NCBI GenBank assembly: GCA_945876185.1
Contig: CAMCMZ010000010.1
Span: 4,614 to 68,613, forward strand
Length of the DNA: 64,000 bases
Origin: Candidatus Kuenenia stuttgartensis
GTDB lineage: Bacteria > Planctomycetota > UBA11346
Direction of reading: 5' to 3'
Under the pieces are notes generated by a model that saw only the letters and a program-made list of their open reading frames with translations, did not search any database and had not been told where the DNA came from. Positions 6,272 through 41,912 of this stretch are shown one piece after another. Position 1 is the first letter of the stretch; every line of letters begins with the position of its first letter. A program made the position numbers and the translations under genes.

Positions 6272-8350
6272 ATGAACTCAGTAGTCTCCTACGACGGTCA
6301 ATCGCTCGCAAACTTGATTGGATTTGGACAGGGGATCTTCGTCCTCGGGGTAGTTCTGGTTTTCCTGGTCGTGATTGGACTCTTGTCCTGGTTTTTCGCA
6401 CCGCGATCACGAGCTCTGGGATATGTGGTAGGGGGTTTAGGTCTGATGTTTGGATTATTGGGCTTTTTCACCCTCAACGGTGAGATCCCGTGGACCCAGT
6501 GGTTGGGCACCGAGATATCACGGCCAGGCGAAAAGTGGCTCGGCTGGTTCATGATATGGCTTGATCTCTTGCTAATTGCAGTGGTTCCTGGACTTTGCAG
6601 GACCCCCGTCGTGCCAACAGCTCCGGTGGCCCCGCCCGCACCGAGTCCAGTCGGGCCGGTATTAGCCCAGACTGGGGATCCCGATCCGTATCGGATCTAC
6701 GCCGAGGCGGTCTCCCCGCCGGTCCCGCGCAGTTCTGCTCCGGAACTTGCCGAGCTGGCACCCCATTTCCCCGAGCTCGATTTGCTCGAACTGATTGGCC
6801 AGGGCGGCATGGGCGCGGTGTACCGCGTCCGTCGCCACGCAGATTCGGCTTTGCTGGCTCTCAAGGTGGTCCGCATCAGCGACGACGATCGCGAGGGTTT
6901 CGCCGAGCGTTTCGCGCGTGAGGCCGAGGCCCTGACCCGGCTCGATCATCCCCACATCGTGGCGATACGAGGCCATGGCCGCGCTGGACCCTGGTGCTGG
7001 TTGCTCATGGATCTGGTCGAGGGCGCCAATCTGCGCCAGGTGGTCGCCACCGGCCGCCTGAGTCCGACCCAGACCCTGGCGTTGGTGCCGCCGCTGTGCG
7101 CTGCGCTGCAATACGCCCACGATCGCGGCGTGGTGCATCGCGACATCAAGCCCGAGAACATCCTTCTCGATGCCGCCGGCAACCCCCGGATTGTGGATTT
7201 CGGCCTTGCCAAACTGCGCCGCGTTGGAGACCAAAATCACACTCGCACCGGCGCGGTGATGGGTACCCCCCATTACATGGCCCCGGAACAGGTCGAGGAG
7301 GCCAAGGACGTCGATCACCGCGCCGACATCTATGCCCTCGGTGTGGTGGTCTATGAACTGCTCACGGGTCAGTTGCCGCTGGGCCGCTTCGAACCTCCCT
7401 CGCACCGGGTCGCGGTCGACGTGCGCATCGACGAGGTGGTGCTGAAGGCCCTGGAACGCGACCCCGAACGCCGCTGGCAGCAGGTCGGACAGGTCGGTCG
7501 CGCCGTCGATGCCATCGACCGGTCAAACGAGCGACCCCGCGTCGAGCTAGTTGGCGCGCCCACTGGTTCGCCGCCGATCGCCATAGCGGAATCCGCAGCG
7601 CCGACTCAGGCCTGGGGCATGGACGTGCAGACCTTCTGCGCCCTCCTGCATCTGTCCCAATTCGCTGGCATCATCATTCCTGCCCTCGGTTGGATCCTGC
7701 CACTCGTCATGTGGTTGAGCTGCCGGCATCGGCATTCAGACATCGACAACCACGGCCGGGTGGTGGTCAATTGGCTGATCAGTGAACTCATCTACGTCAT
7801 CGTCTGCGTGGTGCTGTGCTTCGTCCTGATCGGCATTCCGCTGCTGATCGCACTGCTGTTGATCGGCCTGATCTTCCCGATCATCGGCGCGGTGCGCGCC
7901 GGCCGGGGCGAGGTCTGGAACTATCCGCTCGCCATCCCGTTTTGCGGCCGGGGCGAAGGGCGACCTTCACCATCTGGGCAAGCGCGATCGGGTTGTGGCG
8001 TTGGCTGCTTGATCGCGGTTGCGGTCGTGACGGTGGTGCTGGTGATTGCGGCGGTGTCATTTGGCGTTTTGTTGTTGGCCCGATCGGAAAGACCAGTTCC
8101 GATACAACAGGTCGATCTGTCTTTGACGGGAGTGACCTGGACCGTCAAGGATTATGAATCAGTCGTCCGCCCCCTCGTCGAATCCCTGAGTTCCGATCGC
8201 CGCCGCAAGCCCTGGCCGGTGGAGGGAAAGCCGCAAGTGGTCATTGGACCCATCGACATCCAACGGGCTGACCAAGCCCTCGGCTTCAGTCGTCCCTACG
8301 GGACTGGCTACCTCCTTCTTACTCGTCCCGGGGTTGAAACCCCGGGCTAA
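6272..8350 (+). CDS. Membrane-embedded Ser/Thr protein kinase: N-terminal multi-TM region, Hanks kinase domain, DUF4870-like TM domain and an extra C-terminal TM plus tail
   Basis: Kinase motifs GQGGMGAVYR, ALK, HRDIKPENILL, DFGLAK, GTPHYMAPE. The DUF4870-like block is CALLHLSQFAGIIIPALGWILPLVMW...HGRVVVNWLIS. The last ~22 codons lie inside a repeat element (see 8283-8375). Confidence 0.85.
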   Translation: MNSVVSYDGQSLANLIGFGQGIFVLGVVLVFLVVIGLLSWFFAPRSRALGYVVGGLGLMFGLLGFFTLNGEIPWTQWLGTEISRPGEKWLGWFMIWLDLLLIAVVPGLCRTPVVPTAPVAPPAPSPVGPVLAQTGDPDPYRIYAEAVSPPVPRSSAPELAELAPHFPELDLLELIGQGGMGAVYRVRRHADSALLALKVVRISDDDREGFAERFAREAEALTRLDHPHIVAIRGHGRAGPWCWLLMDLVEGANLRQVVATGRLSPTQTLALVPPLCAALQYAHDRGVVHRDIKPENILLDAAGNPRIVDFGLAKLRRVGDQNHTRTGAVMGTPHYMAPEQVEEAKDVDHRADIYALGVVVYELLTGQLPLGRFEPPSHRVAVDVRIDEVVLKALERDPERRWQQVGQVGRAVDAIDRSNERPRVELVGAPTGSPPIAIAESAAPTQAWGMDVQTFCALLHLSQFAGIIIPALGWILPLVMWLSCRHRHSDIDNHGRVVVNWLISELIYVIVCVVLCFVLIGIPLLIALLLIGLIFPIIGAVRAGRGEVWNYPLAIPFCGRGEGRPSPSGQARSGCGVGCLIAVAVVTVVLVIAAVSFGVLLLARSERPVPIQQVDLSLTGVTWTVKDYESVVRPLVESLSSDRRRKPWPVEGKPQVVIGPIDIQRADQALGFSRPYGTGYLLLTRPGVETPG

Positions 8351-8688: not shown

Positions 8689-11130
<2,442 letters not shown>

Positions 11131-14447: not shown

Positions 14448-16466
14448 ATGGAAGAGCAGCGCCTGCTGCAGATGGCCCAGATCAAGGGCTGGATCTCGCC
14501 CGAACAGCTCGCGCGGGCCCAGGCCGAGCAACAGGCTCTGGCCGACCGTGGCGTCGAGCACAGCCTGTGGTTCCTGGTCCAGGACCTGGGCTTCGTCACC
14601 GACGATCAGGCGCGCGAACTGCGCAAGCACACCTCGTCGACGCGCATCCGCGCGCTGGAGGTCGACGGCTACATCATCCAGCGCCGGTTGGGCAGTGGCG
14701 GCATGGGTGATGTCTTCCGCGCCCGGCATCGCGATGGCCGGCAGGCCGCGGTGAAGCTGCTGTCGGCGCGCTTCGCCCACCACGAGGAGCACCGCCGCCG
14801 CTTCGCACGCGAAGCGCGGGCGATGCTCGGCCTGCACCATGAGCACATCGTCGAGGCGTACGCCACCGGCGAGATCGATGGCACGCCCTGGCTCGCGATG
14901 GAGATAGTCGAAGGCCCGTCGCTGAAGCAGTGGCTGATCGATCACGGTCCGCTGCCGCGCGACCTCGTCCTGGTCATGCTGCGCCAGATCGCCTCCGCGC
15001 TCGCGCTCGCGGCCCATGACAGCGTCCTGCACCGCGACGTGAAGCCGGCGAACATCATCCTTGGTCAGGCGCGCATCGGGAGGGACGAACCTTTCGCGGC
15101 CAAACTGTGCGACTTCGGCCTCGCCAAGGTAGGTCAGCGGCTTGGCGAGGACACCCCGGGCCAGCTCACCGGCAGCGGCCTGGCGCTCGGCACCCCGCAC
15201 TACATGAGCCCGGAACAGGCCTCGGGTGATCACGACCTCGATCAGCGCTGCGACATCTACGGCCTCGCCGCCACCGCCTACCACGCGTTGCTCGGGCAGA
15301 CCATGCACAGCGGCAAGAGTTCGGCCGTGATCATGTACAAGCAGGTCACCGAAGGCGCCGACCTGGGGCTGCTCCGGCGCGCCGGCATCGATGAACCGCT
15401 GGTCGTGATTCTCGGCGGGATGCTGGAGATCGATCGCGCCCGGCGCACCGGCTCCTGGGAGAAGGTACTGGACGCGTTCAACCGGCTGGATCCACGGCCT
15501 GGCACCCCCGTGGCCTGGCCGGAGGAACATTTGCCCCTCACCCTGAAGTCCGACCGCTTCGCCATCCCCACCGCACGCCCGGTCTCGGTGCCAGCCGAAC
15601 CGGCTCCGGCGCCATTCACCAATTCCATCCCGCACGCGGCCCCCGTGCTGACGGATCCATCAGCGGTGGAGGCGAAAACCTCAGCCGCAGCCTTGCTCGC
15701 GCCGTTCACGGATGCTGCGGTGGCACGCTCCCGGGCGCGCCCAGGTCTGCTTTGGGCGGTGTTGCTCGCGCTCGCGGCCAGCGTGCTCATCGTCGCGATC
15801 GGGATGCTGGTCTTGGCCGTGCGTCGGCCTGCCGTGGCGGCGACGCCGCAGACGCTGACGGCCATCCTCAACGAGCCTCGACGGGATGCGGTTGTCCTGC
15901 TCGCGCCGGGCCGCTACCCCGGGCCGGTGCGACTCGGCGTCGCCCAGAGTGGGGTGATGCTGCGCGCCACCGGACCAGGGGTGTACATCGACGGTGGCGC
16001 GCAGCCGGCGCTGCGCTGCGAACCCGGTTTGGTCCGGGCGGTGGTCGACGGGGTCGAACTGGCCAGCACCGGCAGCGCGGTCGAGGTCCTCGCCGGCTCC
16101 GGTCTCGCGCTGAACCGGGTGGTGGTGCGCGGCGGCGATCCCGCCATCGAGGTGTCGGGTGGAACCGTGGATCTGTCCGGGGTGCGGGTCATTGCCACCG
16201 GCACCGCCGTGCGCTGCAATCTGGCGGAACGAGTCAGCCTGATCGATGTCGATCTCAACGGATCCGTCGGCCTGGCCATCGACCACAGCGACCGGATCTC
16301 CCTCGATCGCGTTTCCATCCACGCCACCAGAACAGGAATCTCCTGGGATGGCCCCCGCCCGACGACGGCATGGAGCGACCTGTCCGTGCGCGCGCCGCAA
16401 CCGGTCCTTGGGCTGAGTGTCATCGCCACCGACGGCAGCGGTCCGCGACCGGGTTCGCTGCCCTGA
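14448..16466 (+). CDS. Ser/Thr protein kinase with a GspE/MshE-N-like N-terminal helical module, one TM and a C-terminal right-handed beta-helix (PbH1-like) domain
   Basis: Kinase motifs GSGGMGDVFRA, HRDVKPANIIL, DFGLAK, GTPHYMSPEQ. TM segment LLWAVLLALAASVLIVAIGMLVLAV. The C-terminus has repetitive beta-helix-like segments (VVRGGDPAIEVSGGTVDLSGVRVIATGTAVRCN...). Confidence 0.85.
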   Translation: MEEQRLLQMAQIKGWISPEQLARAQAEQQALADRGVEHSLWFLVQDLGFVTDDQARELRKHTSSTRIRALEVDGYIIQRRLGSGGMGDVFRARHRDGRQAAVKLLSARFAHHEEHRRRFAREARAMLGLHHEHIVEAYATGEIDGTPWLAMEIVEGPSLKQWLIDHGPLPRDLVLVMLRQIASALALAAHDSVLHRDVKPANIILGQARIGRDEPFAAKLCDFGLAKVGQRLGEDTPGQLTGSGLALGTPHYMSPEQASGDHDLDQRCDIYGLAATAYHALLGQTMHSGKSSAVIMYKQVTEGADLGLLRRAGIDEPLVVILGGMLEIDRARRTGSWEKVLDAFNRLDPRPGTPVAWPEEHLPLTLKSDRFAIPTARPVSVPAEPAPAPFTNSIPHAAPVLTDPSAVEAKTSAAALLAPFTDAAVARSRARPGLLWAVLLALAASVLIVAIGMLVLAVRRPAVAATPQTLTAILNEPRRDAVVLLAPGRYPGPVRLGVAQSGVMLRATGPGVYIDGGAQPALRCEPGLVRAVVDGVELASTGSAVEVLAGSGLALNRVVVRGGDPAIEVSGGTVDLSGVRVIATGTAVRCNLAERVSLIDVDLNGSVGLAIDHSDRISLDRVSIHATRTGISWDGPRPTTAWSDLSVRAPQPVLGLSVIATDGSGPRPGSLP

Positions 16467-17497: not shown

Positions 17498-18376
17498 TCA
17501 GGCCGGTACCAGCACCCGCACCGTGCCGCCGTGCGCAATCGTCCAGGTGCCGGCTGCCACCAGGAATGGTTCCCCATCGACCTGCATCGGCATCGGCCGG
17601 GCGAGCGTGAAGCGGAAGGATTCCCCTGGCGGCAGCGCCCGCGCCGAGCTCATCCCGGCGATCACCAGGCCAAAGCCCGGTGGACCAGGCAGAGCGAACG
17701 GGTCGCAGCGCCGGTCGTCATCGCGGATCGATGGCGCAAGTCGGCAACCCGAGGCGTAGCTCGCGATATTGGCCCAGACCAGGCAGCGCGTGCCGGGCGG
17801 CGGCGGCGGGTCGACGACCTGCTCCAGCAGTTCTCCGGTCGACAGCAGGCCGGCCAGGGTGTAGGCGGCCTTGTTCACCAGACCGCCCGCAAGCAATCGG
17901 GGCCAGGCGGAGCGCCAGGCGTGGAACCGGCCCGCCACGGCGGCGTCGTAGCCGAGGCCAAGGTAGGCGTACCAGTCACGGGTGAGCCCAGGTCCGGAAA
18001 TGGTCCAGCGATCGCAGGAGCGGATCGATGCGGATGCGAGGTGGAGCAGCCGGCTTTCAAGTCGGAGTTGAATATTCCAGCCCAGGTGCCGGGCTAAGTC
18101 GTTACCGGTGCCCAGGGGCAGGATGCCCACGGCCGGCGGCAGGCGCGCGTCGGCCCGCCAGGCAGCAGATAGGCAGGCGCTGACCGTGCCGTCACCGCCA
18201 CAGGCCACCAGCCGAGCGCCAGCGTCGCGGCAACCCCGGGCAATGACCTCCAGATCGTCGCCCGGCAGCAGATGCACGGCGTCGGGACAGAGCGTGGAGA
18301 GTTCCCGGGCCAGGCGGGTGCCAGTGCGTCCACCACTTGCCGGATTGATCACGAAGCGCAGCGCGGGCATCGGCAC
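17498..18376 (-). CDS. Diacylglycerol/lipid kinase family protein (YegS/BmrU-like)
   Basis: DAGK catalytic-domain motifs: FVINPASGG, VACGGDGTV, LPLGTGNDLARHLGW. Confidence 0.8.
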   Translation of the reverse strand: MPMPALRFVINPASGGRTGTRLARELSTLCPDAVHLLPGDDLEVIARGCRDAGARLVACGGDGTVSACLSAAWRADARLPPAVGILPLGTGNDLARHLGWNIQLRLESRLLHLASASIRSCDRWTISGPGLTRDWYAYLGLGYDAAVAGRFHAWRSAWPRLLAGGLVNKAAYTLAGLLSTGELLEQVVDPPPPPGTRCLVWANIASYASGCRLAPSIRDDDRRCDPFALPGPPGFGLVIAGMSSARALPPGESFRFTLARPMPMQVDGEPFLVAAGTWTIAHGGTVRVLVPA

Positions 18377-18573: not shown

Positions 18574-19467
18574 GTGGAATCAGAGATCGAGCGCCTGCGC
18601 AAGAAAGTCGAGAATTTCCCCTCGGCTTCGAGCTATAACCGGCTCGCCGAGCTGTCTCGCCTGGCGGGCGATGACGGCGACGCCGAGCGGGTGTGCCGTA
18701 AGTGCATCAAGGAATTTCCCCGCAACGGTCAGGCCTACGTCATCCTCGCGGAGATCCGCCTGGCCCAAAACAAGAAACCGGATGCGGTGCAACTGCTGCA
18801 GATCGCGATCGAGCGCGATCCCCGTTCGTACACCGCGCACCGCCTGATGGCGGATCTTCTCATCGCTGATGGCGCGAAGGATCAGGCCCTGGCCCACCTG
18901 CGTCAGATCGTCACCTTCAAACCGAACGATCCGGCGGTCAGCGCGCGGATCGTGGAACTGGAAGGCAAGCCGGGCAAACCGGCGGACACCGCTCCCACCG
19001 TGGTGGGTGGCGCACCCGTGGCGCGGCGCGCCATCCCTACTGCGGGGGCGACTCCGGCCACCCCGGCCCAGGCGGTCGCCAGCACCCAACCGTCAGCCCT
19101 GCCGGCGCGCCCGCTGCCGGCGACCCGTGTCTCAGCCCTTGACGCCCTCTGCGCCGAATCCGGCGTCAGCGGCGCCTTGGTGGCCGATGGCAGCGGACGG
19201 ACCGTGGTCGCGCGCAAGCTGCCGGCCGCGCAAGAGGAACTCCTTGCGGCGCTCGCCAGCGAAGTGGTCCGCAATGGCGCCGCGGCCCTGAGCACGGTCG
19301 GCCAGGACCGGCTGTCCACCCTCACCGTGGTCGGGGCCCAGGGCCAGATGATGGCGTTCAGCCGCGATCAGCGCCTGACCGTGATCGTGCTCGCCTCCAC
19401 CCAGGTCCGCCCGGCGATGCTCGAGTTGAGGGCACGCCAGGTTCTCATCGATCTTGGAGCCGGGTGA
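18574..19467 (+). CDS. TPR repeat protein fused to a C-terminal Roadblock/LC7 domain
   Basis: GTG start with an upstream AAGGA. The N-terminal ~135 aa are TPR-like (GQAYVILAEIRLAQNKKPDAVQLLQIAIERDPRSYTAHRLMADLL). A Pro/Ala-rich linker follows. The C-terminal ~110 aa are Roadblock-like (GVSGALVADGSGRTVVARKL...LSTLTVVGAQGQMMAFSRDQRLTVIVLAS). Confidence 0.75.
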   Translation: MESEIERLRKKVENFPSASSYNRLAELSRLAGDDGDAERVCRKCIKEFPRNGQAYVILAEIRLAQNKKPDAVQLLQIAIERDPRSYTAHRLMADLLIADGAKDQALAHLRQIVTFKPNDPAVSARIVELEGKPGKPADTAPTVVGGAPVARRAIPTAGATPATPAQAVASTQPSALPARPLPATRVSALDALCAESGVSGALVADGSGRTVVARKLPAAQEELLAALASEVVRNGAAALSTVGQDRLSTLTVVGAQGQMMAFSRDQRLTVIVLASTQVRPAMLELRARQVLIDLGAG

Positions 19468-19814
19468 TGGACGAACTCCTGCAGCAGCTCAACCACGTGC
19501 GCGGCATCGGCGGCTCGATGCTGTTATCAGCCGAGGGTCTGCCCATTGCCGCAGCCTTGCGCGAAGGCACCGACGAGAACGCCCTCGCCGCCGCCGCTGG
19601 CGTCCTCATGGAGTCCGCAGCGCGCCTGGGTCGGCATCTCAGCCTGGGCGGGATCGGTTCGCTCTCGACCGCCGGCGATCAGGGCGCCCTGCTGATCCTC
19701 GCGGCCGGCAAATCCTGGCTCGCGGTGATCATCGACCCCTCGGCCAACCTCGCCCTGCTCCAGCTTGAGGCGCGTCCCTTCGTCGAACGCATCAGCCAGC
19801 GCCTGACCCTGTAA
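19464..19814 (+). CDS. Roadblock/LC7 domain protein (MglC-like paralog)
   Basis: Roadblock pattern: VRGIGGSMLLSAEGLPIAAAL...AAAAGVLMESAARLG...LLILAAGKSWLAVIIDPSANLAL. The start overlaps the stop of the upstream gene (GTGATG at 19464-19469). Confidence 0.8.
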   Translation: MMDELLQQLNHVRGIGGSMLLSAEGLPIAAALREGTDENALAAAAGVLMESAARLGRHLSLGGIGSLSTAGDQGALLILAAGKSWLAVIIDPSANLALLQLEARPFVERISQRLTL

Positions 19815-19857
19815 GGTCCGGCCGCCGGCAGGTGCGGCTTCTTTTCGCCATCCTCCT

Positions 19858-19886
19858 TTCGTCAACATCATTCGATACCATACGAT
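19858..19886 (+). promoter_or_regulatory. Possible sigma-70-type promoter upstream of mglA (TTCGTC-17 nt-TACGAT)
   Basis: TTCGTC at 19858-19863, a 17-nt spacer, then TACGAT at 19881-19886. GGAGA lies ~12 nt before the ATG at 19910. This rests on a pattern match only. Confidence 0.25.
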
Positions 19887-19909
19887 ACCAAGAGCGGAGA
19901 ACGTGAACC

Positions 19910-21283
19910 ATGGTGCAGATCAATTTCGGTCAGCGCGAGGTCAGCTGCAAGGTGGTGTTCTATGGCCCCGGCATGTCGGGGAAGACCACGAATCTTGAGA
20001 TCATCCACAAGAAGGCGCCCAAAGATGCCGTGGGCGAGATGGTGTCGATCGCTACCGAGACCGATCGTACGCTGTACTTCGACTTCCTGCCGCTCGACCT
20101 CGGTCAGGTCGCAGGCATGCGCACCAAGTTCGCGCTCTACACCGTGCCGGGTCAGATCTACTACAACGCGACCCGCAAGCTGGTGCTGCAGAGCGTCGAT
20201 GGCGTCATCTTCGTCGCCGATTCGAACCCGGACAAGATGAGCGAAAACCTGGAATCCCTCCAGAACCTGCGCGACAACCTGAACGAGATGGGCCTCACCA
20301 TCGACGATCAGAGCAGTCAGGGCTTCGTGCCGGTGGTACTGCAATACAACAAGCGCGACCTGCCCAACGCGTTGCCGGTGGCGGACATTGATGCGCAGAT
20401 CAACCCGATGAAGGCCCCGACCTTCGAGGCCTGCGCCCGCGACGGCAAGGGCGTGTTCGCAACCCTGAAGGAGATCTCGCGCCTGGTGATCGAGAAGCTC
20501 AACCGCGAGCACGCCCCCGCCGCCAATCGCCGGCGTACCGCGACCTCGATGACCCCGGTGGGGCAATCAGCGCTGCCGCTCCCGTCGGGCGCACCGCCCT
20601 CGCCGCCGCCAAGCACCACGACCGGATCCAGGCCGTCAGTGATGGCGGTCGCCCCGCAGTCTGGCGGCACCCCGGCCGGCGGACAGCCCACCGTGGCCAA
20701 TACACCGCGTCCGCCGCCGGCCGCGATCCGTCCGCCGCCGCCCCGTCCGGCACCACCGCCACCCACGGCCAGCCCGACCATGACCCCGAATCGGCCGATG
20801 CCGGTGACCTCGCCGACGCCGTCACGGGCGATGCCGAGTCCGCCGCCGCCACGCCCCTATCAGCCGCCCGTGCCGGCGGCCACCCCGGCGCCGACTCCTG
20901 CGGATGAACTCAGTCCGCGCGAGAAGCATCTCAGCAAGCCCAAGCCGCCGACCATCACCAGCGCGGCGAAAGCCCCGACGCCGGATCTCGGCCACACCGA
21001 GCCGAACCTGAAGCGCTACCAGCAGCAGTCGAACGGTGGCGGCGCGCTCAAGACGCTCGCGATGATCTCGCTGGTGCTGATCGCCATCCTCGTCGTCTTC
21101 ACGATCCTGATCATCTTCGTCCCCTTCGTGCGCAAAGCGGTGCGGCCGATCTTCCCACCCGGCATCCAGCGCATGCTGATGGATGAGAACGAGAAGTCCG
21201 CCGCCCTGCCCCGGGCGGATCGCGTCCCGGTGGCGATCGTGCTGACCCGTGCCGGTGACGATGGGGTCGGCCATGGTCAGTGA
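19910..21283 (+). CDS. mglA: MglA-family Ras-like small GTPase with a long Pro-rich C-terminal extension and a C-terminal TM anchor
   Basis: The first ~195 aa are collinear with Myxococcus/Thermus MglA: P-loop GPGMSGKTTN, switch I ETDRTLYFDFLPL, switch II YTVPGQIYYN, NKRD box QYNKRDL. A ~180-aa Pro-rich region follows. The hydrophobic helix is ALKTLAMISLVLIAILVVFTILIIFVPFV (about nt 21044-21130), followed by a 50-aa tail. Confidence 0.9.
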   Translation: MVQINFGQREVSCKVVFYGPGMSGKTTNLEIIHKKAPKDAVGEMVSIATETDRTLYFDFLPLDLGQVAGMRTKFALYTVPGQIYYNATRKLVLQSVDGVIFVADSNPDKMSENLESLQNLRDNLNEMGLTIDDQSSQGFVPVVLQYNKRDLPNALPVADIDAQINPMKAPTFEACARDGKGVFATLKEISRLVIEKLNREHAPAANRRRTATSMTPVGQSALPLPSGAPPSPPPSTTTGSRPSVMAVAPQSGGTPAGGQPTVANTPRPPPAAIRPPPPRPAPPPPTASPTMTPNRPMPVTSPTPSRAMPSPPPPRPYQPPVPAATPAPTPADELSPREKHLSKPKPPTITSAAKAPTPDLGHTEPNLKRYQQQSNGGGALKTLAMISLVLIAILVVFTILIIFVPFVRKAVRPIFPPGIQRMLMDENEKSAALPRADRVPVAIVLTRAGDDGVGHGQ

Positions 21284-21794
21284 GAACGAGGCCCTGCGCC
21301 TGCGTCGGCTGGTCTTCTACGCCAATGACATCGAGAAGTTCAACCAGGCGCTGCTCGCCTTCGTACGCAAATCTAACGCCCAGGCCGTGCTGCTGGTCGA
21401 CAAGGACGGCCACCTTGTCGCCCGCCAGGGCTTCAAGCAGTCCGGCCACGACGGATCGTCGCTCGCGGCCTTGGTAGCGGGCAGCTTCGCCAGCACGCAA
21501 CAGGTCGCCAAGATCCTTGGTGAACCTGAGTTCCGCACCCTGTCGCATCAGGGTCAGACCCAAAGCATCAACGTCATCCTGGTCGGCGACCGTACCCTCC
21601 AGATCGCGGTGTTCTCGTCCCAGATCAAGCCGGGCATGATCCAGGTGATGTGCGCTGAATTGGCCAAGCAGATCGAGGCCCTCCTGGTCGAAGCCGGCAA
21701 GCGCATCCCGCTCGACGAGGGCGCCCAGCCGCTCGGCAAGGAATTCAACCAGGAAATGAAGAACCAGCTCGATTCCCTTTTCGGCAACCTCTGA
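21273..21794 (+). CDS. mglB: MglB-like Roadblock/LC7 protein (candidate MglA GAP)
   Basis: Collinear with Myxococcus MglB: AVLLVDKDGHLVARQG...SSLAALVAGSFASTQQVAKILGEPEF...INVILVGDRTLQIAVF, with a C-terminal acidic helix ending LDSLFGNL. The ATG at 21273 overlaps the mglA 3' end by 11 nt. Alternative starts exist at 21249 and 21261. Confidence 0.8.
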   Translation: MVSENEALRLRRLVFYANDIEKFNQALLAFVRKSNAQAVLLVDKDGHLVARQGFKQSGHDGSSLAALVAGSFASTQQVAKILGEPEFRTLSHQGQTQSINVILVGDRTLQIAVFSSQIKPGMIQVMCAELAKQIEALLVEAGKRIPLDEGAQPLGKEFNQEMKNQLDSLFGNL

Positions 21795-21890
21795 TTCCAA
21801 GATCCGGCCCGTCCTCCATCCGCCCATCCGACCGGGCCGCGCCTGCCCGCACTGGCGCTTGCGGCAATCCGGCATTACCTTTTCCCACGC

Positions 21891-24800
21891 ATGGGTTTCC
21901 AAGGCCAACTCAGTTCCGTCAACCTCTCGGACATCCTCCAGACGCTGCAGGTCAATCACCAGACCGGCGCCCTGGTGGTGGGTGGTGGCGATGATGCGGT
22001 GCGGGTCTGGTTCGACCAGGGCCAGATCGCCGCGTGCTATGCCCCCATCGTCGACAATCTGCCGTATTTGCTGCGGGCCCTGCTGCAAAAGGGCCTGATC
22101 CCGCCCGAACAGGCGCGCGACTTCGAGCGCCGCAACCGCGAGACCGGACAGCCGCTGCGTGAACTGCTGGAGGCCAGCGGCACGATCGGCATCGTCGAAC
22201 TCGACGAGGTGTGCGCCTGGTGCATCGAGGAGATCGTCTGCCCGATCTTTGAGCGCACCGAGGGCGAGTTCGCCTTCACCGACGGTGAACCGCCGCCGGA
22301 ACTGCTCGCTGCGACCAGCGTCTGGATGGGTGCCCTGCGCCTGCAGACCACCCAGCTCCTGCTAGAGGCCACCCGGCGCAAGGATGAATGGCAGCGCATC
22401 CGCGAAGTCATCACCGATCCCGCGGCGCTGCTGGTGGTCGACAACGACGGCCGCGCCAACCTGCGCAACCTCCAGACCGACCCCGACATGCTCAAGGTGC
22501 TGCGCTACCTCGACGGTCGCCACACCATCGACTCCATCGCCGAAGCGGTCGGGGTGACCCGCTTCGACTGTTTCACCATCGCAGCCCAGCTCGTCCTCGC
22601 CGGCGTCGCGCGCACCTGCACCGCGCAGGAGGTGGTCGAGGACGCGGTCCGGCTCAAGACCGATGGAGACTGCGTCAAGGCTGGTGAACTGCTGGAAAAC
22701 GTGCTGCGCACGGCGAAGGTCCCTGAGGTCCTGCGTCCGCTCGCCGAGATCAGCATCCAGATCAACCAGATCCCGCGCGCGGTCGAGCTCTACCTCGACC
22801 TCATCCAGCTCAGTCAGGATCAGGGCGACCTGGAAGCCGCGTTGACCGATCTCAACACTGTGATCGGGCTGTCACCGGACGACCCGGATCTCCACTTCGA
22901 ACGCGCTCAGGTCCTGGCAGACCTCGGCCACATCGAGCAGGCCGCCGCCGGCTACGGCAACGCGGCGCAGGCGTACCTCGCCACCAAAGACGTGAACAAG
23001 GCGATCGACTCCTGCCACCGCGCCAAGAACCTGCTGCCGCGCGCGCCGGAACCGCACCGCTACCTGGCCCGCGCCTACCTGCTGGAAGGCCAGACTGAAA
23101 ACGCCGCCGTCGAATACAAGGCGCTCTGGCATGCGTTGCTCACCATCACCAGTCCGCGCAAGGCCTTGGAAGAGCTGCGCGTCATCCTCGACAGCGACTG
23201 CAAATATCCGGCGATCAAGGATCAGGTGCTGTCGCACGCCCAGAACAGCGAAGCGGTCAAGACCAGCCGAGCCACGCGCCTATTGGTTTACGTCGTGCTC
23301 ATCCTGCTGCTCATCGTCGGCGCGTCGATCGGCTGGCTGACCTTCAGCAAGCTCAAAACCCAGCGCGACGGCCGCGAAGCGCTGCATGCCTTGGACGACC
23401 GTTTTGCCCGCGAACGCGAATCCTTGCCGCCGCCGCATGGGCTCATCCTCGATGACATCAGCCAGGTGCAATTTCGTTATCGTTCCTCTACCGAAGTGAC
23501 CCACGAGGCGGCGACCCTGACCGAGCAGGTGCGCAGCGATTGGGAAGCACGATCCAAGGCGCGCATCGATGAGGCCCTCGCCCTCGGCCGCAACGGCAGG
23601 TTTGAAGCAGCGCGCAATCTGCTCCTGCGAACCCAGACCGAATTCCGCGGCACCGATGCCGCCGCCAAGGTGGACAGCCTGGTGCAGGACATCCAGGGCA
23701 GCGCCATCAAGGTCGAGGTCGTCGCCAAGGTCGAGGAAGCCAAACGCAAATGGCAGGACCTGGACTGGGACGGCGCGGTGCGTGATCTCAAGCCCATCTT
23801 GGATCGCTCCGATCTGCCGCCCGACCTGCGCAGCGAATATCAGGGTTTGTCCTACCAGTGGACGGCAGCCCTGGCGAGCAGCGATGAACTGGGCAAACGG
23901 GCGGACCGCATCGCGGATCGCGGCGATCGCCGGGCCGCGATCGCCGCCTTCCGCCGCGCAGCATCCGGCCAGGGCGAGGCCGGTTGTGCTCGCGCCCGAT
24001 CGCGCCTTGCAGGATTGGAGCTGGATGACGCCAAGGACATCGCCACCCGGGCCCGGGATGCAGCCCAGCGCGGCGATGACGCCGGGGCCTTCGCCGCCGT
24101 TGAGCTGCTCCAGAACCTGGCGCGGGATTCGATCGCGATCTCGGTGCGCGACTTTGTCGCCAATCTCGAACTGCCGTTCACCCTGCGCGTCGATCACCAG
24201 GCGACCGTGCTGACCCTCCACCGCGCCGGCACGGCGACCACGGTGCGCCGACCGCAGGACGCAGTCGGTGCGTGGTCGCAGATGGTCCCGTGCCGCCTGT
24301 CAGAGGAGATCAGCGGCAGCGCCAGCCGGACCGGCTTCACCACCCTGCCATTCACCATTTCCATCAAGGACAAGCGCACCCAGATCGCGATCAGCCTGCG
24401 TCGCGGGCCGCGCTGGAGCGTGCCCCTGGCAGGTGCCGCCACGTTCGGGCCGGTGTCCGCCGACCGCTTCGCCGTCCTTGGCACCAGCCGGGCCACCTTC
24501 GAGATCGTCGACGCGGCCAGTGGCAACGTGCGGGCCGTGCCCTTCCCGGATTGCGTCACCGAATTCCGCCTGCCCGCGGCGATGCACCAGGGCCGGGCCT
24601 ACCTGCTGCTTGACGATCGCGTCGCCGCGATCGATGTCGCCACCCGCAATCTGCTCTGGACCTGGCCCCCCGAACGCTCCGCCATCCGTCAGAACTTCAA
24701 ACCGGTCGGTGGCATCGGCGCCGGCGACCATGAGCTGATCCAGGGCCAGATCCTGCTCTATCTCGGTTCCGGCCGATCCCAGTTGACCATCCTCGCCGTC

Positions 24801-25487
24801 GATGGGACCAGCGTCGTGGCGTATCCGCGGCTGCTCCTGCCCAACGACCTCAGCGGCCAGCCGACCGTCGGCCGCCACGGTCATTTCAGTGTCCTCACCG
24901 TTCCGGCCGGCAATCAACTCGTCGGGTTCGACGTCACCGCCATCACCGAGAGCACCAAGCCGCGCCAGTTGTTCAGCATCCGCACCCGAGGCGACCTGGA
25001 AGGCGTGCCGCAACGGGTGCGCGTGAAGGGCCGGCCGGCCTTGCTGCTGTGTGATATCAGCGGGCAATTGGTGGCGGTCGACACCGACCCCGAAGCCGAT
25101 GACAATCGCCGCGTGCTTGGGTCCTGGGCGGTCGATGGCGTCCGCCCCAGCACTCCGGTCATCCTGCCCGGTGGCAAGGTCGCGGTGACGGCGACCTCGG
25201 ATGGCCGCGTGGTCGCGATCGATCTGGAACGTCCGGGCCATATCCTGTGGCGCCATCCGCAGACCGGCAATCTGGCCCAGGTTCCCGGCCAGGTCGGGGT
25301 TGGCCGCAACACCATCTATGTTGCCGATGTCGCTGGCATCCTGCACGCCATCGACCCCGCCACCGGATCCGGCCTGTGGCGAGCGGATCTCGGCAGTCCG
25401 GCTTGCGCCAGCGTCTGGGCTGCGGACGGACGCATCCTGGTGCCGGTGCGGTCGGGGGCGTTGCTGTGTTTTGATGAGGGTGATTGA
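21891..25487 (+). CDS. Large DUF4388 (PATAN-like) - TPR - TM - coiled coil - PQQ-like beta-propeller protein
   Basis: The N-terminus GQLSSVNLSDILQTLQVNHQTGALVV matches the DUF4388/PatA-N-terminal pattern. Several TPR-like repeats occupy aa ~290-420. The single TM is RLLVYVVLILLLIVGASIGWLTF. The C-terminal ~430 aa carry repetitive beta-propeller/PQQ-like blades (GRVVAIDLERPGHILW, GILHAIDPATGSGLW, GALLCFD). Confidence 0.8.
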   Translation: MGFQGQLSSVNLSDILQTLQVNHQTGALVVGGGDDAVRVWFDQGQIAACYAPIVDNLPYLLRALLQKGLIPPEQARDFERRNRETGQPLRELLEASGTIGIVELDEVCAWCIEEIVCPIFERTEGEFAFTDGEPPPELLAATSVWMGALRLQTTQLLLEATRRKDEWQRIREVITDPAALLVVDNDGRANLRNLQTDPDMLKVLRYLDGRHTIDSIAEAVGVTRFDCFTIAAQLVLAGVARTCTAQEVVEDAVRLKTDGDCVKAGELLENVLRTAKVPEVLRPLAEISIQINQIPRAVELYLDLIQLSQDQGDLEAALTDLNTVIGLSPDDPDLHFERAQVLADLGHIEQAAAGYGNAAQAYLATKDVNKAIDSCHRAKNLLPRAPEPHRYLARAYLLEGQTENAAVEYKALWHALLTITSPRKALEELRVILDSDCKYPAIKDQVLSHAQNSEAVKTSRATRLLVYVVLILLLIVGASIGWLTFSKLKTQRDGREALHALDDRFARERESLPPPHGLILDDISQVQFRYRSSTEVTHEAATLTEQVRSDWEARSKARIDEALALGRNGRFEAARNLLLRTQTEFRGTDAAAKVDSLVQDIQGSAIKVEVVAKVEEAKRKWQDLDWDGAVRDLKPILDRSDLPPDLRSEYQGLSYQWTAALASSDELGKRADRIADRGDRRAAIAAFRRAASGQGEAGCARARSRLAGLELDDAKDIATRARDAAQRGDDAGAFAAVELLQNLARDSIAISVRDFVANLELPFTLRVDHQATVLTLHRAGTATTVRRPQDAVGAWSQMVPCRLSEEISGSASRTGFTTLPFTISIKDKRTQIAISLRRGPRWSVPLAGAATFGPVSADRFAVLGTSRATFEIVDAASGNVRAVPFPDCVTEFRLPAAMHQGRAYLLLDDRVAAIDVATRNLLWTWPPERSAIRQNFKPVGGIGAGDHELIQGQILLYLGSGRSQLTILAVDGTSVVAYPRLLLPNDLSGQPTVGRHGHFSVLTVPAGNQLVGFDVTAITESTKPRQLFSIRTRGDLEGVPQRVRVKGRPALLLCDISGQLVAVDTDPEADDNRRVLGSWAVDGVRPSTPVILPGGKVAVTATSDGRVVAIDLERPGHILWRHPQTGNLAQVPGQVGVGRNTIYVADVAGILHAIDPATGSGLWRADLGSPACASVWAADGRILVPVRSGALLCFDEGD

Positions 25488-25598
25488 AACCGCGGGGCGC
25501 TGCCCCGCAGGCCCCGCCAGGGCTGGCGCCCTGGACCCGGCCCTGCCCGGAAGGGCGTGCTGGCGCGTCCTTGCGTTGATCACGCGATTGCCCGGATG

Positions 25599-25634
25599 GG
25601 CGGGGAGGCGCTTCGCTGCCCGCCTACGGTTTTT
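25599..25634 (+). terminator. Possible intrinsic terminator (weak)
   Basis: GGCGGG-14 nt-CCCGCC, followed by tacggTTTTT. A 5-nt spacer before the T-run weakens the call. Confidence 0.35.
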
Positions 25635-25663
25635 GAATGAGGTGTCCTAGTCGTAACCGGATG

Positions 25664-25690
25664 GGCGGGGGCGCTGCTTGCCCGCTTTTT
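25664..25690 (+). terminator. Intrinsic (Rho-independent) terminator downstream of the MglA cluster
   Basis: GCGGG-ggcgctgcttg-CCCGC, immediately followed by TTTTT. It lies between convergent genes ending at 25487 (+) and 25746 (-). Confidence 0.6.
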
Positions 25691-25745
25691 GCGGGAACCT
25701 GCCGACCATGCCATCCGCCTGGGGCGGTTTAGGTCCTGAAGAAGA

Positions 25746-37511: not shown

Positions 37512-41765
<4,254 letters not shown>

Positions 41766-41912
41766 CCGGGTAACCGTTCTGGCCGTGCGGCCGAGATGCT
41801 GGAATGCTTGCGTACCATACGGTCGACCCTTGCCGGGCAAGACAGCGCACCGCCCACCGTCCACGTGAGGAGCCCTGATGGCGGGCGATGGCGGGACGGA
41901 CAGGGCCGGGGA

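Follow-up and report, generated by a model that had tools for sequence, protein, structure and literature searches.

A membrane-anchored MglA in a five-gene Roadblock and PATAN-propeller cluster of Planctomycetota, with a possible link to type IV filaments

Among prokaryotic Ras-like GTPases MglA serves as the model, and it is known to act as a soluble protein that shuttles between the cell poles. The Planctomycetota are noted for unusual cell biology. Makarova and colleagues are said to have recorded in 2006, by comparative genomics, a gene neighbourhood in which PATAN accompanies MglA and MglB. In this study, we analyze a cluster of five same-strand genes, g1 to g5, in a stretch of 64,000 nucleotides from Candidatus Kuenenia stuttgartensis (assembly GCA_945876185.1, contig CAMCMZ010000010.1, positions 4,614 to 68,613), hereafter called the window. 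In order, the genes encode a fusion of tetratricopeptide repeats (TPR) with a Roadblock domain, a stand-alone Roadblock protein, an MglA, an MglB and a PATAN-propeller membrane protein. We read g1 to g5 as a membrane-bound MglA/MglB switch that acts through g5 on a type IV filament-like machine, and we find the chances for and against this reading about evenly balanced.

The association of PATAN with MglA is already known from comparative genomics. The neighbourhood of PATAN and MglA/MglB genes has been described (Wuichet and Sogaard-Andersen 2014; PMC4316618), and the statement in an earlier note on this DNA, which had been made from the letters alone, that PATAN/DUF4388 genes lie next to MglA/Roadblock genes agrees with that source. 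What is new is a family of MglA proteins tethered by a transmembrane (TM) helix, a fixed five-gene cluster with a TPR-Roadblock fusion, and a bitopic PATAN-propeller protein together with its link to a pseudopilin cassette that contains a giant GspK-like protein. The literature searched, mostly without subscription journals, contained no account of a membrane-anchored MglA or of the five-gene cluster.

The cluster shares with the MglA-MglB switch of Myxococcus xanthus and Thermus thermophilus, whose further components include MglC, RomR-RomX, RomY and SgmX, a Group-1 G domain (R53 Arg finger, TVPGQ, NKRD) matched over ~195 residues, an MglB Roadblock partner encoded adjacent to mglA, and a likely tie to type IV filaments. 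Moreover, its extra Roadblock and TPR proteins recall MglC and SgmX of Myxococcus. However, the known MglA proteins are soluble and ~195 residues long, whereas g3 is a predicted integral membrane protein of 457 residues. In addition, the sequence of g2 does not resemble MglC, g1 is a single chain that unites TPR and Roadblock, no guanine nucleotide exchange factor of the RomR/RomX type was recognised among the genes examined here, and the bitopic PATAN-propeller protein is without a Myxococcus counterpart.

Two described systems resemble g5. In its logic, g5 is like GltJ of the Myxococcus Agl-Glt gliding machine, a trans-envelope membrane protein whose cytosolic region binds MglA-GTP and recruits MglB, which puts assembly of the machine under the control of the GTPase state (PMC11135422). 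However, the two have no sequence or domain kinship, because GltJ is a ZnR-linker-GYF protein and g5 combines PATAN, a winged helix-turn-helix (wHTH) and TPR, and no Glt/Agl gliding genes are present here. The cyanobacterial PatA-type proteins PixG, PixE and PilG have in common with g5 a full PATAN domain including its helical insertion, but g5 is without the receiver (REC) domain, and its PATAN domain is the N-terminus of a 1,198-residue single-pass membrane protein. In Synechocystis, PATAN domains bind the pilus motor proteins PilB1 and PilC (bioRxiv 10.1101/2021.06.11.447907), which fits the pseudopilin neighbourhood of the g5 relatives described below.

Two further comparisons are analogies only. 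As in Rag-Ragulator and in the signal recognition particle receptor with its beta subunit (SR-beta), a Ras-superfamily GTPase is found at a membrane with several Roadblock-fold proteins; however, in the present case the GTPase carries its own anchor, a C-terminal TM helix, and there is no longin domain and no LAMTOR1-like anchor. The actinobacterial conservon CvnA-D likewise unites a membrane protein, a Roadblock protein and an MglA-like GTPase, and the g2 profile matches CvnB5. Unlike the conservon, the cluster has no histidine kinase, and its G domain is that of a Group-1 MglA and not of the Rag/Arf type or of a Group-2 CvnD.

MglA itself has an unusual architecture. Judged by its sequence, the G domain of g3 (Table 1) is that of a catalytically complete Group-1 MglA. 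Residues 2-196 match Thermus MglA (3t12_A) with E = 5.8e-72 in phmmer and Myxococcus MglA with E = 7e-65. According to PMC4316618, Group 1 is defined by an intrinsic Arg finger beside the G2 Thr and by a TVPGQ G3 motif. Both elements (R53-T54 and T78VPGQ82) are present in g3 and invariant in a 25-sequence alignment (A4), and the P-loop (G19PGMSGKT26) and N147KRD150 align with those of Thermus and Myxococcus MglA. The translation therefore bears out the earlier statement that gene 3 is an MglA with all catalytic motifs. The coupling of mglB to mglA is retained in 17 loci.

Solved MglA chains have 195-203 residues. Because g3 is not a single-domain, soluble protein of ~195 residues, we consider it a G-domain orthologue with a new architecture. 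The 257 residues past the G domain form a proline-rich tether, modelled by AlphaFold2 (AF2) as disordered, with a predicted local distance difference test score (pLDDT) <50 over residues 204-376; a juxtamembrane motif; a predicted TM helix (Kyte-Doolittle 19-residue mean 3.42, pLDDT 86-91); and a 53-residue tail that runs to the stop at 21283. The juxtamembrane motif is kept in 17 orthologues and makes near-invariant columns in alignment A4. All 17 syntenic MglA orthologues have an open frame and exactly one TM segment despite many indels, and one TM segment is also found in 113 of the 120 nearest database MglA homologues (257-544 residues, with a median linker of 148 residues and a median tail of 82). 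Therefore, the anchor is not a read-through artefact. It is a trait of the MglA family and not of g3 alone, so the membrane tethering that had been proposed for this MglA holds as a TM helix that is predicted in g3 and kept across orthologues. Pipelines of the Joint Genome Institute label these anchored homologues 'signal recognition particle receptor subunit beta'.

With a TM anchor of its own and a long disordered tether, this MglA family cannot act by pole-to-pole shuttling. An integral-membrane MglA would be a surprise to specialists. More than 110 protein clusters in the database have the anchor, and with this family the small GTPases of bacteria move nearer to the eukaryotic ones, whose logic is membrane-anchored.

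A variant of the anchor was observed in one relative (L018:6798-8177), in a protein encoded immediately upstream of mglB. It has the juxtamembrane motif and TM anchor of the tethered MglA, but Rho_N and DUF4912 stand as its N-terminus in place of the G domain. Either a domain was swapped here or the assembly is chimeric, and the fusion suggests that the MglA anchor is a module in its own right. Outside the Planctomycetota, genes for PATAN proteins lie within 3-5 kb of mglA/mglB in loci of Gemmatimonadota, Zixibacteria and Ignavibacteria; unlike g5, these PATAN neighbours of mglA are soluble proteins of 360-540 residues. In five loci from metagenome-assembled genomes (MAGs) of Zixibacteria and Ignavibacteria (L044, L052, L057, L061, L067), the MglA gene is 3-4 kb from the gene of a soluble PATAN protein, and the MglA proteins (463-649 residues) carry long acidic or low-complexity C-terminal extensions. 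These extended MglA proteins were considered as candidates for a TM-anchored MglA outside Planctomycetota and were rejected, as they contain no TM segment. Two of the five loci, L044 and L057, have the gene order Roadblock-MglA-MglB.

Pfam and PDB searches identified all three Roadblock proteins as they had been read before, with gene 1 a TPR-Roadblock protein, gene 2 a Roadblock protein and gene 4 an MglB. In g1, three TPR-type repeats (Pfam TPR_19/TPR_16) precede a Robl_LC7 domain that scores 26.5 bits against a cut-off of 23, and profile-profile comparison (hhalign) relates the C-terminus to the g2 family with 88% probability. An alignment of 16 g1 orthologues shows conservation of the TPR at the N-terminus and of the Roadblock at the C-terminus. 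The top solved structures for the g2 family profile are the Asgard Roadblock proteins 7yh1_D (described in PMC10933270) and 7f8m_A (E ~4e-11) and CvnB5. The same profile matches MglB with E = 5e-3 and MglC (7ct3) with E = 0.35, and dynein LC7 scores better than both. The identification of g2 as MglC was therefore rejected, the matches to Asgard Roadblock, CvnB5 and dynein LC7 all being stronger.

The g4 product is predicted to be an MglB, since it combines the Roadblock/LC7 fold with specific likeness to characterised MglB proteins. Its residues 12-169 match MglB of M. xanthus (6izw_B, E = 2.3e-17), and it also matches Thermus MglB (1j3w, E = 2e-11). It scores 69.7 bits against the NCBIfam MglB model NF052242, under the cut-off of 200; this model, named GTPaseActivMglBThm, appears to be of the Thermus type.

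The fifth gene is the largest of the cluster. Pfam, hydropathy, AF2 and Foldseek agree on the DUF4388/PATAN domain, the TPR, the single TM segment and the C-terminal PQQ-like propeller that had been noted in it, whereas the coiled coil that had also been noted is modelled instead as helical repeats (residues 485-757) and then a beta-sandwich (residues 760-835). Before the TM segment, g5 consists of PATAN (residues 1-175), a wHTH-like domain (185-242) and TPR-like helices (245-451). DUF4388/PatA_N (PF14332) scores 77.9 bits over residues 4-168, against a threshold of 25 (E = 8e-22), and AF2 sets the helices of residues 59-121 between beta elements, as the helical insertion of a PATAN domain. 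Pfam also returns TPR_11/TPR_19 and a weak HTH_47 match. A response regulator of the PatA type was considered for g5 and rejected, because g5 gives no Response_reg (REC) match.

The AF2 model of g5, for which 21 homologues were used, has a mean pLDDT of 87.6. Confidence is ~85-94 in the predicted cytoplasmic part and low over residues 459-487, around the TM segment, but a hydrophobic segment (Kyte-Doolittle >= 1.6) is present at the same position in 107 of 110 g5 family members. Because g5 has no signal peptide, a PATAN domain of cytoplasmic type at its N-terminus and a single TM segment, the propeller (residues 840-1198) would lie outside the cytoplasm. The earlier note had made its proposal depend on the propeller identity of this C-terminus, and an 8-bladed BamB-like fold was found there. 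Foldseek matches the propeller to BamB (8orr/3q54, E ~2e-12, target-normalised TM-score 0.70-0.74) and to the 8-bladed designer protein Tako8 (TM-score 0.79), and PQQ_2 matches residues 1104-1195 with E = 4e-14. However, BamB is a lipoprotein, whereas this propeller is the C-terminus of a 1,198-residue bitopic protein. The BamB model TIGR03300 gives 39.7 bits against a cut-off of 285 and spans only residues 1098-1196. The candidates BamB and pyrroloquinoline quinone (PQQ) dehydrogenase were therefore rejected for g5, since the fold alone agrees and the family models are far under their cut-offs.

The g5 family is lineage-specific. It comprises 116 clusters at 90% identity, has a near-constant length of ~1,190-1,230 residues, and all of its members come from Planctomycetota MAGs or metagenomes. 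For its predicted periplasmic module of helical repeats and beta-sandwich (residues 490-840), a set of 1.84 billion proteins contains only 15 representatives, and these all belong to the g5 family. A protein of similar design occurs in a second, distant Planctomycetota family (L050:316-3417), where a 1,033-residue product has the order PATAN-TPR-TM-TPR-PEGA-PQQ propeller and an mglA gene lies ~2 kb downstream. That a distant family shares this design beside mglA argues that the PATAN-TPR-TM-propeller design is under selection.

The genes of the cluster stay together in related genomes. When one genome per GTDB species was scanned, 42 loci with g5 family members were found, with g5 identities of 32-87% across the related loci; we regard as informative the 26 loci that have at least 3.4 kb upstream of g5. 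The order g1-g2-mglA-mglB-g5 is kept in 17 of these 26, all from Planctomycetota, and among 9 further, shorter loci mglB adjoins g5 in 6. The earlier note had proposed a survey of the gene order across the group of Planctomycetota, Verrucomicrobiota and Chlamydiota (PVC). The order is indeed kept in relatives, but it was seen only in MAGs of one Planctomycetota lineage. The proposed switch is accordingly specific to an uncultured lineage of Planctomycetota, which is known here only from MAGs.

Three observations concern these loci. On the minus strand of the window, a DAGK_cat/DAGK_acc lipid-kinase gene (17498-18376) is divergent from g1, and 14 of the 17 syntenic loci have such a gene ahead of g1; the two may be linked in function, through lipid signalling at the membrane where MglA would be anchored. 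Two contigs of the MAG Co_metawrap_1754, L006 and L015 (coverage 22x and 12x), each contain a full cluster and pseudopilin cassette, which represent either two paralogous systems or a mixed bin. Finally, L006 and L023, from different MAGs, have identical hit coordinates and identities.

The downstream side of g5 connects the cluster to pilin-like genes. Among 27 related loci with enough downstream sequence, 20 have a pseudopilin cassette directly downstream of g5, co-directional with it and within ~50-300 nt. The cassette encodes, in order, a GspG-like protein (~200 residues), a GspH-like protein (~450 residues), a giant GspK-like protein (1,600-1,980 residues) and a GspJ-like protein, the fourth being seen in four loci, where the locus extends far enough. 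Cassette genes were recorded in L003, L006-L011, L014, L015, L017-L020, L022, L023, L025, L027, L028, L032, L034 and L040. In L007, L009 and L020 the cassette follows g5 even in the absence of g1 to g4, and L040 has the first pilin-like gene before its contig ends. Because the cassette follows g5 with or without the GTPase genes, we consider g5 to be the hub that joins the GTPase genes and the pseudopilin genes.

As in the GspG/H/J/K proteins of the type II secretion system (T2SS), the genes after g5 carry a prepilin methylation domain, and the pilin-like proteins exceed the N_methyl/TIGR02532 cut-offs. The cassette differs from the T2SS in that its giant protein is 5-6 times as large as GspK, it has no ATPase, platform or secretin gene beside it, and all equivalog scores are below cut-offs. 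The uncharacterised PVC 'Verru_Chthon cassette' offers another likeness, with weak matches to its proteins D, A and C (TIGR02596/02599/02600). The N-terminus of the giant protein matches GspK with E = 7e-5, which is sub-threshold. The earlier note had stated that the window contains no type IV pilus genes and that the output of the module is unknown. The first statement stands, as a search of all 64 kb for the prepilin motif was negative and no PilB/GspE, PilC/GspF or secretin gene was seen there; the second is narrowed by the cassette that follows g5 in the related loci.

These data allow a mechanism to be proposed. MglA would be fixed at the cytoplasmic membrane by its disordered tether of ~175 residues, the juxtamembrane motif and the C-terminal TM helix, and MglB, on the strength of its sequence, would be the GTPase-activating protein of MglA. 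The products of g1 and g2 would most likely pair as a heterodimer of Roadblock proteins and, in the manner of MglC or Ragulator, regulate the switch or serve as its scaffold. On the cytoplasmic side, the PATAN-wHTH-TPR part of g5 would read or recruit MglA in its GTP state, and the periplasmic helical arm, beta-sandwich and 8-bladed propeller would contact an envelope machine. Because the cassette directly follows g5 in most relatives, this machine is most likely a type IV filament, either a pilus or a pseudopilus. MglA-GTP would license or position filament assembly, and hydrolysis stimulated by MglB would reset the switch. The direction of signalling would thus be inside-out, and an inside-out link to a type IV filament is the better supported one because of the cassette in 20 of 27 loci and the binding of PATAN to PilB and PilC. 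The mechanism also draws support from the PATAN-MglA/MglB neighbourhood that recurs across phyla and from the precedent of GltJ. Should g5 indeed connect MglA with a filament complex in the periplasm, the gating of trans-envelope machine assembly by a GTPase would extend beyond Myxococcus gliding, in which GltJ has that role.

Several results weigh against this mechanism. The cassette matches to GspG, GspH, GspK and GspJ are all below the family cut-offs, and in the 10-kb flanks no PilB/GspE ATPase, PilC/GspF platform or secretin gene was seen. The 64-kb window lacks the cassette, which is not adjacent to g5 in the 87%-identical L001 either, so for the window genome the link to an output comes from its relatives. 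Among the 26 informative loci, 8 have g5 without any of g1 to g4 upstream, and L018 retains only mglB; the coupling of the cluster is therefore frequent and not obligatory. The g2 protein is nearer to archaeal and CvnB-type Roadblock proteins than to MglB or MglC. Finally, the positive-inside rule was tried for topology. It is ambiguous for MglA, where the family mean of Lys plus Arg residues flanking the TM segment is 2.7 on the N-side versus 1.8 and the window protein has 1 on the N-side versus 3, and it leaves the topology of g5 unsettled, with 2.5 on either side of the TM segment.

A more specific form of the mechanism is possible, although we would not expect it to prove right. According to this form, the switch stays permanently at the membrane, and an integral-membrane MglA on a long flexible tether, three Roadblock regulators and g5 as the hub couple the GTPase cycle to a PVC-type pseudopilus with the giant GspK-like protein at its tip. 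If this is true, g3 would be the first small GTPase of a prokaryote to rely for its function on a membrane anchor of its own, and the cluster would correspond in function to the membrane-anchored GTPase/Roadblock platforms of eukaryotes, Rag-Ragulator among them. The cluster is a testable setting for three poorly understood elements: the PATAN domain, multi-Roadblock regulators, and a pseudopilin cassette that encodes a giant GspK-like protein and bears a weak likeness to Verru_Chthon.

The filament switch must be weighed against a receptor that works outside-in, which we consider unlikely. In such a receptor, the g5 propeller would sense a ligand or the state of the envelope, the PATAN-TPR part would set the nucleotide state or the position of MglA, and the output would be another, cytoplasmic one. 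The architecture of g5 is indeed receptor-like, since a single TM segment separates an interaction domain in the cytoplasm from a large beta-propeller in the periplasm; its periplasmic module is family-specific, as ligand-binding domains often are; and no effector genes adjoin the cluster in the window or in L001. However, g5 contains no known signalling-output domain (kinase, cyclase, HAMP), characterised MglA systems work inside-out on motility machines, and PATAN is an output domain in Synechocystis (bioRxiv 10.1101/2021.06.11.447907). The tight and frequent adjacency of g5 and the pseudopilin genes also suits a machine component better than a sensor. The earlier note had cast gene 5 as a receptor passing an extracytoplasmic cue to the GTPase, and no result of the searches favours that role.

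It is quite improbable, in our view, that the cluster is a polarity or envelope-biogenesis module independent of pili, serving polar growth, division or the assembly of the outer membrane or cell wall, with the pseudopilin neighbourhood a coincidence of the lineage. MglA proteins are general polarity regulators (PMC4316618), the genes around the cluster are housekeeping ones (dnaA, polA, rho, hemL, maf), and the best structural matches of the g5 propeller are BamB proteins. Against these points, eight-bladed propellers are generic interaction scaffolds, and g5 is not BamB by its score, being bitopic and not a lipoprotein. Moreover, what is conserved beside the cluster is the pseudopilin cassette and not a set of envelope-biogenesis genes. 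That g1-g2, mglA-mglB and g5 are no functional unit at all, and are adjacent merely by shared ancestry in one lineage, would accord with the 8 loci lacking g1 to g4, with the origin of all loci from one phylum and with a terminator-like hairpin between g2 and g3, but this is highly improbable given that loci with as little as 32-38% g5 identity still have the order (L025, L028, L032, L042), that coding regions overlap or have short gaps, that the hairpin is not significant, and that PATAN occurs near mglA/mglB independently in four other phyla and in published surveys.

Table 1. Positions of the features of the cluster and of example cassettes in relatives (window coordinates unless a locus is named).
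Feature	Position	Strand	Basis or context
g1, TPR (residues 1-125), low-complexity linker, Roadblock/LC7 (residues ~186-297); 297 residues	18574-19467	+	Pfam
g2, stand-alone Roadblock/LC7; 115-116 residues	19464-19814	+	Robl_LC7 E = 1.5e-12
Weak terminator-like hairpin followed by TCTTTT, g2-g3 gap	19820-19839	+	Consensus scan
g3, G domain (residues 1-200), predicted Group-1 MglA	19910-20509	+	phmmer against PDB
g3, disordered Pro-rich tether (residues 201-375; 29% Pro)	20510-21034	+	AF2, composition
g3, juxtamembrane motif H340-L-x-K-x-K-P-P ... T363-x-P-x-L-K-R-Y-Q	20927-21019	+	Orthologue alignment
g3, predicted single TM helix (residues 386-404 by hydropathy; AF2 helix 378-403)	21065-21121	+	Kyte-Doolittle, AF2
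g4, predicted MglB; 173 residues	21273-21794	+	Robl_LC7 E = 1.3e-10
g5, predicted cytoplasmic part: PATAN/PatA_N, wHTH-like, TPR-like helices	21891-23243	+	Pfam, AF2
g5, single hydrophobic TM segment (residues 464-482)	23280-23336	+	Kyte-Doolittle mean 2.69
g5, predicted periplasmic part: helical repeats, beta-sandwich, 8-bladed propeller	23343-25487	+	AF2, Foldseek
Two GC-rich hairpin and T-run elements, starting at 25598 and 25663	25598-25691	+	Between convergent g5 and Metallophos gene
Pseudopilin cassette, examples	L022:13859-15897; L006:15667-22412		Downstream of g5 orthologues

The layout of the cluster agrees with the first description of it. The five open reading frames (ORFs) are present at the positions originally given, public copies of the contig that were called independently have the identical five genes, and ORF and junction checks reproduce the co-directional order, the overlaps and the gaps of ~95 nt. 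The products have 297, 115-116, 457, 173-181 and 1,198 residues. The third-position GC of the five genes is 0.82-0.86, in a window of 67% GC, and on this account they are typical of real genes here. At the g1/g2 junction, GTGATG, the g1 stop TGA occupies 19465-19467, and g2 starts either at GTG 19464, with a 4-nt overlap, or at ATG 19467, with a 1-nt overlap, the latter being picked by public gene callers. The ATG of mglB at 21273 lies 11 nt inside mglA. Because these coding regions overlap, g1/g2 and mglA/mglB are each translationally coupled. The intergenic gaps measure 95 nt between g2 and g3 and 96 nt between g4 and g5. A scan of all five proteins with PADLOC gave nothing relevant, and an anti-phage defence system was rejected on this basis.

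The g2-g3 hairpin was considered as a terminator that would split the cluster after g2. It folds no better than shuffles (z = 0.55), and the gap is ~33-105 nt across relatives and ~33-66 nt in most; it is therefore probably not functional. In the same gap, ~25 nt before mglA begins, the sequence is comparatively rich in AT and contains a tandem repeat, CGATACC ... CGATACC, with 10-nt spacing (19873-19889), which may be a regulatory or promoter element. Downstream of g5, the hairpin and T-run terminators that had been said to close the cluster were located as two elements. Each hairpin is preceded by CCGGATGGGCGGGG, so that 25592-25691 holds two copies of CCGGATGGGCGGGG 65 nt apart, each opening a GC-rich hairpin with a T-run. 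The pair may represent a bidirectional terminator that has been duplicated, or else a small repeat element; the region between g5 and the Metallophos gene as a whole folds no better than shuffles (z = -1.2).

Elsewhere the window carries housekeeping and signalling genes, among them dnaA, rho, polA, hemL and maf and the genes for a hybrid histidine kinase and for Ser/Thr kinases. Since dnaA is present (589-2094, Bac_DnaA and Bac_DnaA_C), the window is probably near the chromosomal replication origin. On the minus strand, an uninterrupted ORF of 813 residues (8689-11130) joins a dephospho-CoA kinase (CoaE) domain to Rho RNA-binding and ATPase domains, and may be a CoaE-Rho fusion or a rho gene with a mis-extended start. 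The three Ser/Thr protein kinases are encoded at 6272-8350, 14448-16466 and 37512-41864; one of them is fused to DUF4870, and another, of 1,450 residues, is a fusion with an FGE-sulfatase domain. Only L001, the closest relative, shares the synteny between the 14448-16466 kinase and the cluster.

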